Origin: Escherichia phage ECO07P2
Strand: one strand, 5' to 3'
Sequence record: OP172785
DNA: 64,000 bases
Under the pieces are notes generated by a model. It saw nothing but the letters and a program-made list of their open reading frames with translations. It was not told the origin of the DNA and searched no databases. The translations under genes and the position numbers were made by a program. Below, piece after piece: positions 5,645 to 37,642 of the stretch (position 1 is its first letter; every line of letters starts with the position of its first letter).

Positions 5645-6310
5645 ATGGCTGATTTAAAAGTAGGTTCAACAACTGGAGGCTCTGTTATTTGGCATCAAGG
5701 AAATTTTCCATTGAATCCAGCCGGTGACGATGTACTCTATAAATCATTTAAAATATATTCAGAATATAATAAACCACAAGCTGCAGATAACGATTTCGTT
5801 TCTAAAGCTAATGGTGGTACTTATGCATCAAAGGTAACATTTAACGGCGGTGTTCAAGTCCCATATGCTGTAAACAACACAAACCCATGCGGTATTTATC
5901 CAGGTAATGGTGATAATGCTACTTTTGCTGTAACAAATATCGATATTGTTTCGTGGAATGGTATTGGTTTTAAATCATCACAAGGTTCAGCAGACCGAAC
6001 TGTTGTAATTAATGCACGTAATGGTGATATTAGTACAAAAGGCATTGTGATAGCAGTAGGTCAAGTAAAAAGTAACGCAGCTGCTCCTATAGAAGCTCGT
6101 GATCTTACTAGAAAGGACTACGTCGATGGAGCAATAAATACTGTTACGGCAAATGCGAACTCTAGAGTGTTACGATCTGGCGACACTATGACAGGTAACT
6201 TAACTGCGCCAAACTTTTTCTCACAGAATCCCGCATCTCAACCTTCACATGTTCCACGATTTGACCAAATCGTAATTAAGGATTCTGTTCAAGATTTCGG
6301 CTATTATTAA
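5645..6310 (+). CDS. 36: long tail fibre distal connector gp36
   Basis: 221 aa (T4 gp36 221 aa), synteny. Confidence 0.85.
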
Positions 6311-10017: not shown

Positions 10018-10035
10018 TCCTTAAAAGGAGGGTCT

Positions 10036-10692
10036 ATGGCAGCACCTAGAATATCATTTTCGCCCTCTGATATTCTGTTGGGTGTTCTAGATCGCTTGTT
10101 CAAAGATAACGCTACCGGGAAGGTTCTTGCTTCCCGGGTAGCTGTCGTAATTCTTTTATTTATGATGGCGATTGTTTGGTATAGGGGAGATAGTTTCTTT
10201 GAGTACTATAAGCAATCAAAGTATGAAACATACCGTGAAATTATTGAAAAGGAAAGAAATGCACGCTTTGAATCTGTCGCCCTGGAACAACTCCAGATAG
10301 TTCATATATCATCTGAGGCAGACTTTAGTGCGGTGTATTCTTTCCGCCCTAAAAACTTAAACTATTTTGTTGATATTATAGCATATGAAGGAAAATTACC
10401 TTCAACAATAAGTGAAAAATCACTTGGAGGATATCCTGTTGATAAAACTATGGATGAATATACAGTTCATTTAAATGGACGTCATTATTATTCCAACTCA
10501 AAATTTGCTTTTTTACCAACTAAAAAGCCTACTCCCGAAATAAATTACATGTACAGTTGTCCATATTTTAATTTGGATAACATCTATGCTGGAACAATAA
10601 CCATGTACTGGTATAGAAATGATCATATAAGTAATGACCGCCTTGAATCAATATGTTCTCAGGCGGCCAGAATATTAGGAAGGGCTAAATAA
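10036..10692 (+). CDS. t: holin T
   Basis: 218 aa, N-terminal TM segment VAVVILLFMMAIVWY, large C-terminal domain; length and position as T4 t. Confidence 0.9.
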   Translation: MAAPRISFSPSDILLGVLDRLFKDNATGKVLASRVAVVILLFMMAIVWYRGDSFFEYYKQSKYETYREIIEKERNARFESVALEQLQIVHISSEADFSAVYSFRPKNLNYFVDIIAYEGKLPSTISEKSLGGYPVDKTMDEYTVHLNGRHYYSNSKFAFLPTKKPTPEINYMYSCPYFNLDNIYAGTITMYWYRNDHISNDRLESICSQAARILGRAK

Positions 10693-12774: not shown

Positions 12775-12784
12775 TATTTATTCC

Positions 12785-17372: not shown

Positions 17373-17930
17373 TTAAATGGAAAGATACCATCCGTTGTAG
17401 TTGCTTTTTCTTACAACTTTACGAAGGTCTTCTCTATCACCAATGAACTTCGGAGTGTACTGGATGACACCTGGATGAATTTCTTTAGTGTTGAATATAA
17501 TTATACAGTCAGCGACCTGATGATTCAGAATGGGCCCTAGATTTATTCCAGAACCGTATGGATACTCTCCGCTGCATCCTGTTGTTACAGAAATCCAACG
17601 TGAGTCAGTTTGGTGTGTTTTGACTTCTACACGAAGCCCGCAATATCTTGGATGAGCCAATACATCCCATGCATATGTATACGGGTCATTAACATCCTCT
17701 TGGCCTTTGTTAACATACCCGCTCAGCCAATCTGCTACAAAAAACTCTGCATACACAGCGATACGGCATCTTTCGATGACTTCTGCTTTATCCTGATTAG
17801 GATTTTGTTTTAAAGAGTATCTTGCTGTATCAGCAATTTTGACCTTCATTTCACTAGTCAAGTCATTGTTCGATAGGGTAAATGTCGGAATCTGAAATAG
17901 TCTCTGTAAACCCGGATTCGTTTTCTGCAT
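17373..17930 (-). CDS. denB: endonuclease IV DenB
   Basis: 185 aa, position between ndd cluster and rIIB as in T4. Confidence 0.8.
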   Translation of the reverse strand: MQKTNPGLQRLFQIPTFTLSNNDLTSEMKVKIADTARYSLKQNPNQDKAEVIERCRIAVYAEFFVADWLSGYVNKGQEDVNDPYTYAWDVLAHPRYCGLRVEVKTHQTDSRWISVTTGCSGEYPYGSGINLGPILNHQVADCIIIFNTKEIHPGVIQYTPKFIGDREDLRKVVRKSNYNGWYLSI

Positions 17931-17995
17931 TAAACTTTCCTTTTACGTCGGAATCACTGATATTCATACAATAAATCATAGTTTCCCTTAAAACA

Positions 17996-23787: not shown

Positions 23788-24159
23788 TCACTCAAATTTA
23801 ATGGCTTGAAGGAGACTAATAATTCTCAAGCGACTTCTTTCATCTTTAACTGTAAAAGAAAGAGGGTCACCAGATTTCATAGTGATGGTGCATCCAAAAT
23901 CAAAATCTTCTGTAACTTCTTCGAATAGGTCAAACTCTTCATCATAAATTAGAACATTACTCTGAAAACTGTGAAGAATTTTTCCATCATTTCCAGATGC
24001 TGTACTAATCATTGTAACATTATTACCCTTCATATCTTCAACGATAAATTCGCTTGTAGATATTACATTACTAATAGAACCATTCCTATAAATAGCAGAA
24101 AATAGATATTTCTTTTCTTCGCCTTCGCGAATACGATACTTCTTACCGATTTTAAACAT
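23788..24159 (-). CDS. hypothetical protein (123 aa)
   Basis: ORF. Confidence 0.5.
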   Translation of the reverse strand: MFKIGKKYRIREGEEKKYLFSAIYRNGSISNVISTSEFIVEDMKGNNVTMISTASGNDGKILHSFQSNVLIYDEEFDLFEEVTEDFDFGCTITMKSGDPLSFTVKDERSRLRIISLLQAIKFE

Positions 24160-34297: not shown

Positions 34298-34467
34298 TCA
34301 GTTTTCAATGAAAACTTGTGCCATGAATTCATGTTCATCTTGAATTTGTTTATATAAAGCCATTACAGCATTTATATTAGAGCTATCTACTTTAAGTTGA
34401 TAAGCATACAGCTCATGTAAATTAATTAAAGCTTTTTGACGTTTAATAAATTCTTCTTTGGATATTT

Positions 34468-34671
34468 TCATTTTGAATGCTCTATAATTAATTTTAAGGC
34501 TTCTTCGCTGACAAAAATTTCATCAGGACCTTCTTCTACAACCCAATCAGCCATACGAAGCTGATTAGATAAGAGCTCACATACGAGCTCCTTATCATAA
34601 TTTTTAAATAGCTGGTCAATACGTTTCTTGCGGGCTTTCTTAAGCTGGCGTTTATTTAAACGAGCCATCAA
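34468..34671 (-). CDS. hypothetical protein (67 aa)
   Basis: Basic N-terminus; sits where T4 carries segF. Confidence 0.45.
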   Translation of the reverse strand: MMARLNKRQLKKARKKRIDQLFKNYDKELVCELLSNQLRMADWVVEEGPDEIFVSEEALKLIIEHSK

Positions 34672-35186
34672 TAACCTCGGTCTTGACGAGCGAAGTTTTC
34701 AGCATTTTTCAGATAATAAAGTTTAAAGATTTCTTCAGCCGTAAGACCAAGACCTTGGAACATGTTCAGAACGAAATGAAGAATATCAATCATTTCGAAT
34801 TTAATTTCCAACTGATCTTGCGGAGACAAATCAGTAATTAGAGTTTCACGGCGTTCACCATGTTGAGCTTTCCAAGGCTTCCATACAGCAGATGCATCTT
34901 TTTCACCATTGCTCATGCCGCCAAGAGAAGTCAGAAGTTCACGGAATTCATCGTCAATATAATCTTTTTGATTACGCAGCCAATCAACAACTTCGCCTGC
35001 AGTAGCCAAATCATCAGGATGACGGTTATATTCAGGTTTATCTTTAGCTAAACGAACCTGCAAAGATTTCTGCATATCAAGCATAACCTGTAGTGGGTCT
35101 TTTTCATCACCGAGAATATCCCAGTATTCATTTTGAGCTTTATCAGCGCCTTCGATCAGTTGTGAACATTCATTAAAGTATGCCAT
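34668..35186 (-). CDS. 56: dCTPase/dCDPase gp56 (MazG-like)
   Basis: Start placed at MAYFNECSQLIEGADKAQNEYWDILGDEKDP (172 aa) with AAGGA RBS; the ORF-track upstream extension begins at GTG. Confidence 0.85.
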   Translation of the reverse strand: MAYFNECSQLIEGADKAQNEYWDILGDEKDPLQVMLDMQKSLQVRLAKDKPEYNRHPDDLATAGEVVDWLRNQKDYIDDEFRELLTSLGGMSNGEKDASAVWKPWKAQHGERRETLITDLSPQDQLEIKFEMIDILHFVLNMFQGLGLTAEEIFKLYYLKNAENFARQDRGY

Positions 35187-35220
35187 TATTTTTCCTTTCA
35201 ATTCATGGGTTAGTAGATTA

Positions 35221-35244
35221 ATTATACAATAAATATATAAAGCA
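35221..35244 (-). promoter_or_regulatory. MotA-dependent middle promoter for gene 56
   Basis: Minus strand TGCTTTA (35238-35244), 11 nt, TATAAT (35221-35226). Confidence 0.6.
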
Positions 35245-35257
35245 ATAAGGAGGACAT

Positions 35258-35458
35258 ATGGTACAAAAATTAATGGCACTTGTTAATGCCATAAAAGGTA
35301 ATAAAAAACGTATAGCTTTTACTATTTCTGCTATGGTAGGAATTTTACTTTGGAATTTTGTTTTATCGCCAATTGCTATTGCTCATGGCGTTAATATTCC
35401 AGTAATTACTCTTGATACATTCGTAGATTTAGCATTTGCTTTAGTTGGGTTAATTTAA
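35258..35458 (+). CDS. hypothetical two-TM membrane protein (66 aa) on the opposite strand
   Basis: TAAGGAGGA RBS 4 nt before ATG; two hydrophobic segments; fills the 56-61 intergenic space. Confidence 0.4.
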   Translation: MVQKLMALVNAIKGNKKRIAFTISAMVGILLWNFVLSPIAIAHGVNIPVITLDTFVDLAFALVGLI

Positions 35459-36483
35459 ATCTTAGCATATTTAGATAGCCGCATTTTAGCCATCAACCCC
35501 TGCGCAATATTATTTTTCATATATTCCATAATTTGTTCAGGGGTTGCACCTTCCTTTCTAATCATATCATTAACATCTTTTGATTTCCAGGGAGATTTGT
35601 CCCAAAACATAACCCTTTCTCCTGCATCAACCAATTTAGTCATTCGTTTAATAGTGTCAGGATGACGAGGTTCATTATCTAAAACCCATACACGTCTATC
35701 TTTAAATGGAACAATTTCTAGGTCTAATTGACCACCTGTAATAGCTATACCATTTTCAATAAAAAGTGAATCTATAGGTCCTTCTAGAACATATACATCA
35801 CCATCTTTGACCCGTTCAACGCCATAGATTTTTGTTGCCTCAGGATAAGCTTTGATGGTGATATATTTTTGGGGAGCATCTTTCTTTAACGCACGTCCTT
35901 GAAAAGACTCAGCTTTTCCATTAGCATTATAAATTGGAATAACAAGACGAGGCTCAGGTATTTCCTTTTTGTATGTTCCTGGTGCTATACTATTAACTAA
36001 TTTAGGCCATTCGGTTGTAAACCAAAGATATTTCCATTTGTCCTTTGGAATACAACGAGCTTTTACGTATTTTATAATTGGATGGTCTTCCGCCAGTTTA
36101 TCTAATCTAACACATGACGGAAGAGATTTAATTATTTTCTTCTCAGGTTGTTTAGGAAGTTCTTTAGGTTTTTCTACTGGACGACTTTTACCTTTTTCTT
36201 TTCTTATTTCAAAGATATACTCACGATATAAATCGGGTTCAAACTCCTTTAAATATATTCCGATTGGTGCATGATAGTTACAGTTATAACAATGAATATT
36301 TCCTTCATTATTATCGCCATAATACCATCCACGAGCTTTATTTTGGTCGGTTTTTGAATCTCCACAAACAGGGCATCTAAACCGCAATTTAAAAGTTGAA
36401 CTATTATTTACTTGTGTAAATTTAGGTAAATGAGCTAATGCACGATATGCAAACTCATTATCAATCCAAGGTATTGATGACAT
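35455..36483 (-). CDS. 61: DNA primase gp61
   Basis: 342 aa (T4 gp61 342 aa), N-terminal zinc ribbon CPVCGDS...CYNC, Toprim-like core. Confidence 0.9.
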   Translation of the reverse strand: MSSIPWIDNEFAYRALAHLPKFTQVNNSSTFKLRFRCPVCGDSKTDQNKARGWYYGDNNEGNIHCYNCNYHAPIGIYLKEFEPDLYREYIFEIRKEKGKSRPVEKPKELPKQPEKKIIKSLPSCVRLDKLAEDHPIIKYVKARCIPKDKWKYLWFTTEWPKLVNSIAPGTYKKEIPEPRLVIPIYNANGKAESFQGRALKKDAPQKYITIKAYPEATKIYGVERVKDGDVYVLEGPIDSLFIENGIAITGGQLDLEIVPFKDRRVWVLDNEPRHPDTIKRMTKLVDAGERVMFWDKSPWKSKDVNDMIRKEGATPEQIMEYMKNNIAQGLMAKMRLSKYAKI

Positions 36484-36651: not shown

Positions 36652-37008
36652 TTAACCTCTATTCATAAAAGCATTAAAAATTTGGTCATCAATCGATGGA
36701 ACAGCAACCTTTTCTACATCATTTAGCAAATCATTAATTTCATCAGATAGCATAACACATGTACCTTTATTTCCTGTAATTGTTACTGCACAATTACGAA
36801 CGTTTTCTTTATCAAATTTTAGGTTAATATTTTCGTAGTGAAAATCCTTTAATGCCGAATATATCTTTAAAATGAAATTGTCTTTTACTACAATAAACCC
36901 AACCTCACTATTAAAACGCGGTTCATGGAAACTGTAATAAACCTTTTCATCTATAAAATCGTATGAAATTTTTTCCATTTTTAAATATGAAAATTCAGAA
37001 CTATACAT
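36652..37008 (-). CDS. hypothetical protein (118 aa) sharing C-terminal tail with next gene
   Basis: Ends SIDDQIFNAFMNRG; its 3' about 45 nt are duplicated at the end of 37010..37642. Confidence 0.55.
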   Translation of the reverse strand: MYSSEFSYLKMEKISYDFIDEKVYYSFHEPRFNSEVGFIVVKDNFILKIYSALKDFHYENINLKFDKENVRNCAVTITGNKGTCVMLSDEINDLLNDVEKVAVPSIDDQIFNAFMNRG

Positions 37009-37009
37009 A

Positions 37010-37642
37010 TTAACCTTTATTCATAAAAGCATTAAAAATTTGATCGTCAATAGAAACTTTTACTTTAGGCTGTTCTTCAAACGGTAATTCATATCCACAT
37101 ATTACAATTTTGTGATCGATACCAAAATACACAGAAGCAATATTATTAATATTATTTTCAGTGAAATCTAAATCAACATCAATATCTTTTTGACTAACGC
37201 TCAAAGGATAATTAATACGAATAATTCGATTATCTTTAACAAAGATTCCACCGACATACTCTGTGCTGCGTTTAAAGTTTACACGTTTCCTAAATGAAAA
37301 ATATTCAGGTTCTTTATGGGCTCGACTCATAGGGCTTAAAGTGTATTCCGAATATGAAATATCAAATCCTACACCTTCAATATGAGCCAAAGTATCATGA
37401 TTAAACCAATTATAATCGTATGCCAAATCCATTAAATTGTAATATGTGAAAGGCACCGGATTAACATCATATGTTGTACCTTTAAAATCTGCCCAGGCAA
37501 CGATTTCGTTATCTTTAACAATTACAAAAATTGTGCCAATAAGATATCCACGGTTATTTTCATTAGGTGTTATATTATAACATTGTGCATCAGGAAATTT
37601 ACCGTATTTAAACGGTGGATTTTTGTGCATATAATAAATCAT
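37010..37642 (-). CDS. hypothetical protein (210 aa), 61.2-position gene
   Basis: Ends SIDDQIFNAFMNKG; occupies the 61.x region between primase and sp. Confidence 0.55.
   Translation of the reverse strand: MIYYMHKNPPFKYGKFPDAQCYNITPNENNRGYLIGTIFVIVKDNEIVAWADFKGTTYDVNPVPFTYYNLMDLAYDYNWFNHDTLAHIEGVGFDISYSEYTLSPMSRAHKEPEYFSFRKRVNFKRSTEYVGGIFVKDNRIIRINYPLSVSQKDIDVDLDFTENNINNIASVYFGIDHKIVICGYELPFEEQPKVKVSIDDQIFNAFMNKG

Follow-up and report, generated by a model that had tools for sequence, protein, structure and literature searches.

The dam.1 reading frame between genes 56 and 61 of Escherichia phage ECO07P2

The closest described counterpart of this locus is that of phage T4, for which the reference record (NC_000866) gives the gene order soc-segF-56-dam-61. 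T4, T4T, and T2 also have a small ORF on the far side of dam, so that the full order is 56-dam-ORF-61. This ORF is named dam.1 in the T4T record (HM137666; T4Tp032, ADJ39749.1) and “RB32ORF030w” in RB51 and vB_SsoM_113, and hundreds of Tequatrovirus records annotate it as “hypothetical protein.” NC_000866 itself carries no annotation of it; we mapped the T4 copy to ca. 17738-17938 of that record. There, flanked by dam and gene 61, it is 112 nt away from the start codon of dam and overlaps the end of gene 61, stop codon included, by 4 nt. The gene is therefore already catalogued in the T4 family. Our searches of the literature on dam.1/RB32ORF030w, T4 small proteins, ribosome profiling, and late-promoter, TSS, and antisense mapping found nothing on dam.1.

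The gene 56-gene 61 junction with and without dam

The DNA analyzed here (the window, a stretch of 64,000 nucleotides from record OP172785) is a segment of a Tequatrovirus (T4-like) genome. The ca. 2 kb around the ORF is 97 to 98.6% identical to many Escherichia and Shigella T4-like phages, and a 24-kb stretch of the window is 95 to 97% identical to phages such as Ozark, GEP001, and PhiZZ6. The junction comprises the following genes:

34668..35186, minus strand: gene 56 (dCTPase/dUTPase), 74% amino acid identity to T4 gp56
35258..35458, plus strand: dam.1-family ORF (PHROG 2024), 66 aa, MVQKLMALVNAIKGNKKRIAFTISAMVGILLWNFVLSPIAIAHGVNIPVITLDTFVDLAFALVGLI, with its ATG at 35258 and its TAA at 35456-35458
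35455..36483, minus strand: gene 61 (DNA primase), convergent with the ORF

The interval between genes 56 and 61, put at ca. 270 bp in the earlier note, measures 268 bp and holds the plus-strand ORF. Gene 56 starts with an ATG complementary to 35184-35186; the intergenic DNA therefore begins at 35187, which lies outside gene 56. Gene 56 and the ORF point away from each other, their start codons 71 bp apart, and at the other end the stop codons of the ORF and gene 61 overlap by 4 nt (35455-35458).

The earlier note placed dam and oriA of T4 between genes 56 and 61; the T4 record has dam in that position and annotates oriA at the 5' end of gene 56. The note also saw no methylase in the window, and this is borne out, as tblastn with T4 Dam found no homolog there (best E = 0.59). 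The same search found none in positions 1 to 150 kb of Ozark (E ≤ 1), where no methyltransferase is annotated; the remainder of Ozark, beyond 150 kb, is homologous to the window and is hence covered by the window search. A diverged methylase located elsewhere was considered as well, and a scan for the motif [DNS]PP[YFW] gave unrelated proteins only.

The implication that the small ORF takes the place of dam did not survive the comparison with T4. A lineage-specific ORF that had replaced dam would agree with the missing methylase gene and with the fact that the ORF occupies most of the gap. However, T4, T4T, and T2 carry the same ORF (92 to 95% amino acid identity in T4 and T2) alongside dam, which refutes replacement, and we give it practically no chance; wherever dam is present, the ORF accompanies it. 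In the alignment of T4 with the window, homology is lost at the -10 element of the promoter of gene 56 and picks up again 11 nt short of the ORF ATG; ca. 900 bp of T4 (dam plus ca. 100 bp upstream) correspond to 20 bp in the window, and the ORF lies outside the swapped part. In addition, the ORF occurs in genera in which dam was never seen at the 56-61 locus. T4-type Dam at ≥90% identity was found in 182 phage records versus 499 with the T4-type ORF, so that dam behaves as a variable cassette whose absence is a common polymorphism. The ORF is thus what stays constant at the junction, and dam is among several optional inserts on its gene 56 side. The lack of dam has to be considered on its own: this lineage simply does not have the cassette. 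In T4 and T2, the Dam cassette takes up the slot between gene 56 and dam.1; it is absent from the window and from the examined part of Ozark, and it is better regarded as an optional cassette in an insertion-prone slot than as a fixed landmark of the 56-61 region.

The wider comparison supports the same picture. All seven enterobacterial T4-like groups examined have the ORF and the primase gene tail-to-tail: it is found beside gene 61 in T4, T2, Mosigvirus SF, Klebsiella phage RCIP0102, Gelderlandvirus S16, Kanagawavirus KLB31, and Karamvirus CkP1, and the 4-nt overlap with gene 61 recurs in T4, T2, SF, S16, KLB31, and CkP1. On the gene 56 side, the arrangement is a dam-less 56-ORF-61 in SF, RCIP0102, and S16, and the Ozark junction is 56-ORF-61 like that of the window. 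KLB31 has a mazG-like gene in the gap, CkP1 a 101-aa ORF, and in T2 this gap is filled by dam together with a 181-aa ORF. The gene 56-dam.1 gap (35187-35257 in the window and its equivalents in loci L001, L011, L022, and L023) is an insertion hot spot. T4 dam.1 and the window ORF are alike in sequence (92 to 100% amino acid identity), length, tail-to-tail position with gene 61, and Shine-Dalgarno sequence. They differ in that dam (plus the 181-aa ORF in T2) stands between dam.1 and gene 56 in T4 and T2, while the window ORF abuts the gene 56 promoter.

The 181-aa ORF of T2 (locus L011, 1865-2410, minus strand) lies between dam and dam.1, and it is also found upstream of the dam.1 homolog in loci L019 and L008; its 5'-end sequence appears, in addition, upstream of the dam.1 homolog in a Klebsiella-phage-like contig. 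Its match to the Pfam DpnII restriction endonuclease family is below threshold (E = 0.0096, 15.7 bits, cutoff 23), and the Shinka record annotates a “putative restriction endonuclease” beside dam. The dam cassette may have descended from a GATC restriction-modification pair.

Gene 56 of the window has only 74% amino acid (77% nucleotide) identity to that of T4, against 96% in the flanks (window 34298-35186 compared). segF is absent here, and the stretch between soc and gene 56 has two small ORFs, one of which is soc.2 in related records. This arrangement would presumably be like the T2-type allele that takes part in marker exclusion by SegF.

Conservation and coding constraint

The length of the ORF is not significant by itself, because the AT-rich window contains many spurious plus-strand ORFs of 50 to 100 aa. 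Conservation in relatives and codon-level constraint, the properties by which the earlier note proposed to judge it, are both present. Searches by tblastn with the ORF retrieved 850 phage records, of which 693 cover ≥80% of the query and 499 pass 90% identity, the latter (the T4-type ORF) being 92 to 100% identical. The exact window protein is already public, on 100 contigs. Pairwise dN/dS values are mostly 0.07 to 0.39 in four clades (Tequatrovirus, Mosigvirus, a third group of E. coli phages, and Klebsiella phages), or roughly 0.1 to 0.35, which indicates purifying selection, although within-clade values come from few substitutions, and the value of 1.2 for the window against locus L007 reflects one synonymous and four nonsynonymous changes. 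Summed by codon position, the variable sites number 19, 4, and 29. In family alignments, M1, K13, W32, N33, P38, G44, and V56 are invariant down to 27 to 30% identity. The family is 57 to 70 aa long and shares the pattern K-G...W-N-[FY]...P...G...P...[DE], which the window ORF also displays.

The protein matches the PHROG 2024 profile (E = 5.4e-31, ORF residues 2 to 66 against profile positions 1 to 65 of 65), whose category is “unknown function.” An exhaustive profile search of 1.84 billion representative proteins gave only 13 matches, all 45 to 70 aa long, nine of them at or near full length (57 to 70 aa). Four representatives of these (P0050, P0052, P0054, and P0056) were used as tblastn queries and matched almost exclusively enterobacterial T4-like phages, which gives no tie to a characterized family, and scans of IMG/VR added few loci (five and eight). 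The ORF protein had no match in Pfam (E ≤ 10), NCBIfam, or PADLOC. A profile search of the PDB gave chance matches to transmembrane segments only, and Foldseek against viral models (BFVD) retrieved its own orthologs followed by noise.

We consider it very probable that the ORF is a real, conserved gene for a small membrane protein, orthologous to T4 dam.1 and independent of dam. A different view is that the ORF is incidental and that the DNA or RNA is conserved as a cis element, be it a gene 61 terminator, promoters of gene 56 or dam, or oriA. It draws on the gene 56 promoter elements that abut the ORF, on the lack of annotation in RefSeq T4, on the frequency of spurious plus-strand ORFs of similar size in the window, and on a minus-strand structure within the coding sequence:

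35263..35292, minus strand: terminator-like hairpin ATGGCATTAACAAGTGCCAT followed by TAATTTTTGT, inside ORF codons 6 to 12

The stop codon of gene 61 lies 163 nt upstream of this hairpin with its T-run. T4 has the identical hairpin, and some related records list it as a terminator. Placed as it is, it would keep transcripts of gene 61 apart from the middle promoter of gene 56. It is not recognizably conserved, however, in the Mosigvirus, Klebsiella, KLB31, and CkP1 phages, and the gene 61 terminator was ruled out as the cause of the conservation of the ORF, the hairpin being confined to Tequatrovirus. The substitutions moreover follow codon positions, with low dN/dS in four clades, and the frame, length, and residue motif persist at 27 to 30% identity, where the DNA is unalignable. 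The Shine-Dalgarno sequence is conserved too, in an (A)GGAG(G)-type form at all 12 homologous loci, and a search of Rfam produced subthreshold snoRNA noise without any family match. A purely cis-acting origin of the conservation is therefore highly implausible. With dam.1 taken as a protein-coding gene, its omission from NC_000866 is an annotation gap in which a clearly real, conserved gene is missing. The omission concerns a conserved and probably late small membrane protein, in a phage that is the best studied of all.

Predicted promoters, translation signal, and transcript

The region between the start codons of gene 56 and the ORF contains overlapping signals on the two strands:

35221..35226, minus strand: -10 hexamer TATAAT, 11 nt downstream of the MotA box and 34 nt before the gene 56 ATG
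35228..35235, plus strand: late-promoter-like motif AATAAATA, 30 nt before the ORF ATG
35238..35246, minus strand: MotA-box-like ATTGCTTTA, predicted -30 element of the gene 56 middle promoter
35246..35254, plus strand: Shine-Dalgarno sequence TAAGGAGGA, with GGAGG 5 nt upstream of the ORF ATG

The consensus for MotA is (a/t)(a/t)TGCTT(t/c)A, ca. 11 to 13 bp upstream of a TAnnnT -10 element. The MotA-box/-10 pair of the window fits this consensus, as a sequence match, and its T4 counterpart is the annotated P(M) 16.53 mot box (X01416), found in T4 at the 3' end of dam. The plus-strand late motif falls wholly within the 11-nt spacer of the pair, so that two divergent promoters of different temporal classes would be nested in 26 bp, the putative dam.1 late promoter sitting inside the spacer of the predicted gene 56 middle promoter, which would depend on MotA and points the other way. 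The earlier note had the ORF overlapping that middle promoter region; this holds for the promoter and ribosome-binding region of the ORF, which overlaps the MotA-box/-10 pair, but the coding sequence starts 12 nt beyond the box.

Late promoters of T4 have the sequence TATAAATA from -13 to -6; T4 relatives have T or, often, A at -13 (PMC1524935). The motif of the window matches it at seven of eight positions, and it reads AATAAATA here versus GATAAATA in T4. Its position predicts a transcription start near 35241 and a 17-nt leader. Motifs of the form WATAAATA are depleted in the window (9 observed versus 22.5 ± 5 in shuffles), and six of the nine stand 26 to 42 nt upstream of a start codon on the same strand, namely, those of genes 34, 36, t, soc, and 49 and of this ORF. 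Among loci of diverged lineages, NATAAATA occurs 20 to 30 nt before the ATG in 10 of 12, with ATTAAATA standing in its position in the remaining two; the late motif is thus retained across lineages though the upstream flanks are otherwise unalignable. Counting against a late promoter are the base at -13, which is A, G, or C instead of T, and the ATTAAATA variant of the two lineages. In the first 50 kb of Ozark, which hold early and middle genes, only two CDS are on the plus strand, dam.1 and a homing endonuclease. We think that dam.1 is probably expressed late: its own gp55-type late promoter at 35228-35235 would drive it clockwise. What residual interest the gene has lies in this apparent late gene embedded in an early region and absent from the T4 reference annotation.

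The remaining three of the nine late-like motifs, at 24087-24094 (plus strand), 6133-6140 (plus strand), and 12775-12782 (minus strand), have no suitably placed downstream ORF. The one at 24087, a perfect TATAAATA, is on the plus strand within the early region, and late transcription from it could yield antisense RNA.

As the earlier note reported, the 66-codon plus-strand ORF is preceded by a strong ribosome-binding site. The combination AAGGAGG-N3-7-ATG occurs at only two sites in the 64-kb window (0.46 expected), the holin gene t (10025-10038, plus strand) and dam.1 (35247-35260, plus strand). Translation of dam.1 from this near-perfect Shine-Dalgarno sequence would be efficient. Both holin t and dam.1 are membrane proteins, and both genes have a late-promoter motif upstream.

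Downstream of the ORF, a simple scan found no intrinsic plus-strand terminator for 3.5 kb, so that a late transcript may, speculatively, run antisense into gene 61. One could go further and suppose that this transcript is the main product, which as an antisense to primase mRNA would damp late primase synthesis, the peptide being secondary. The 4-nt convergent overlap conserved in six of seven lineages and the terminator-free 3.5 kb are both in keeping with this, and in the KLB31 record a plus-strand terminator is found only past the far end of the primase gene. However, the scan covered intrinsic terminators, and Rho or other structures could end the transcript. Besides, the protein sequence itself is under selection, which excludes a role of the RNA only. 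We regard the antisense transcript as improbable as the main product, and it is in any case compatible with dam.1 being a gene for a small membrane protein, the explanation that we favor.

Membrane topology, possible function, and neighboring reading frames

The 66-aa product has an N-terminal amphipathic helix, a basic cluster, a transmembrane helix at ca. 19 to 42, a short loop, and a C-terminal hydrophobic helix. AlphaFold (AF2), run with a 13-sequence alignment, predicted helices at residues 2 to 12, 16 to 42, and 52 to 63 (mean pLDDT of 79). Of the two transmembrane helices described in the earlier note, the first is robust, with Kyte-Doolittle values of 1.7 to 2.7 in all members of the family, while the second is weak. 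The C-terminal segment exceeds the threshold here (1.87) but not in the Klebsiella, S16, KLB31, and CkP1 homologs (1.08 to 1.38), it is transmembrane-like by hydropathy only in Tequatrovirus and Mosigvirus, and the helix predicted there has only 12 residues. The N-terminal side is basic, with four to eight K+R in 10 of 11 members examined and two in the other (P0054), which points to an N-in orientation. The product would therefore insert in the inner membrane by one transmembrane helix, with its basic N terminus in the cytoplasm, and the short C-terminal hydrophobic helix would lie on or in the periplasmic leaflet or, in the window ortholog, form a second span. Most likely, judging from these sequence features, dam.1 encodes a late-expressed inner-membrane protein with a cytoplasmic N terminus.

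The invariant W32-N33 and P38 sit in the transmembrane helix. Polar residues in transmembrane helices are associated with helix-helix association, and the invariant mid-membrane Trp-Asn and Pro suggest the same here. Our best guess is that the Trp-Asn pair, the Pro, and a conserved acidic residue after an (L)PP motif would serve self-association or docking on a membrane partner. The protein would then act late in the envelope, for example, in lysis timing, lysis inhibition, superinfection, or membrane-linked assembly. Any such specific envelope or lysis role can only be put forward tentatively. The fuller proposal of a late membrane component shared by the enterobacterial T-even-like phages, either oligomerizing and viroporin-like or partner-binding, that would tune lysis timing, lysis inhibition, or envelope integrity, the overlap with gene 61 perhaps adding an antisense shutdown of primase, is more doubtful still.

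The UniProt entry A0A482MZV5 (phage OE5505) labels an ortholog “Holin,” which raises the question of whether dam.1 is a holin or another protein of the lysis cassette. It is small, membrane embedded, and probably late, has a polar Asn within its transmembrane helix, and has a Shine-Dalgarno sequence equaled in strength within the window only by that of holin gene t. Class II holins, which have two transmembrane segments, share its size range and its one or two hydrophobic helices. They differ in their charged C-terminal tail and in the holin-family match that dam.1 lacks: its last 25 residues contain no K or R and two D and end in LVGLI, with no charged hydrophilic tail, no Pfam holin family was matched at E ≤ 10, and fold matches to holins were insignificant (E > 6). 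The UniProt label appears to be automatic. Furthermore, the window contains the canonical T4 holin t (218 aa, ATG near 10036), which makes a holin role for dam.1 unnecessary, and Ozark has spanins, RI, and RIII. Overall, a holin or lysis-cassette identity seems very unlikely.

By analogy, dam.1 may be compared with Imm, Sp (spackle), RI, and Ac, small T-even products located in the membrane or periplasm and acting on the envelope; their genes are on the early (minus) strand, whereas dam.1 is on the late strand. No sequence kinship of dam.1 to these four was detected, the exhaustive profile search having given tiny family members only. The Sp gene lies 2 kb from dam.1 in the window. Nothing in our analysis of dam.1 contradicts current understanding; should a phenotype be found, dam.1 would join the known components of the envelope or lysis biology of T4.

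Upstream of gene 61.1, the window has two adjacent minus-strand ORFs of 118 and 210 aa (36652-37008 and 37010-37642), whose C-terminal ends are nearly alike (...SIDDQIFNAFMNRG and ...SIDDQIFNAFMNKG). This likeness points to partial duplication, in tandem, of an ORF resembling gene 61.2, which T4 has in a single copy.
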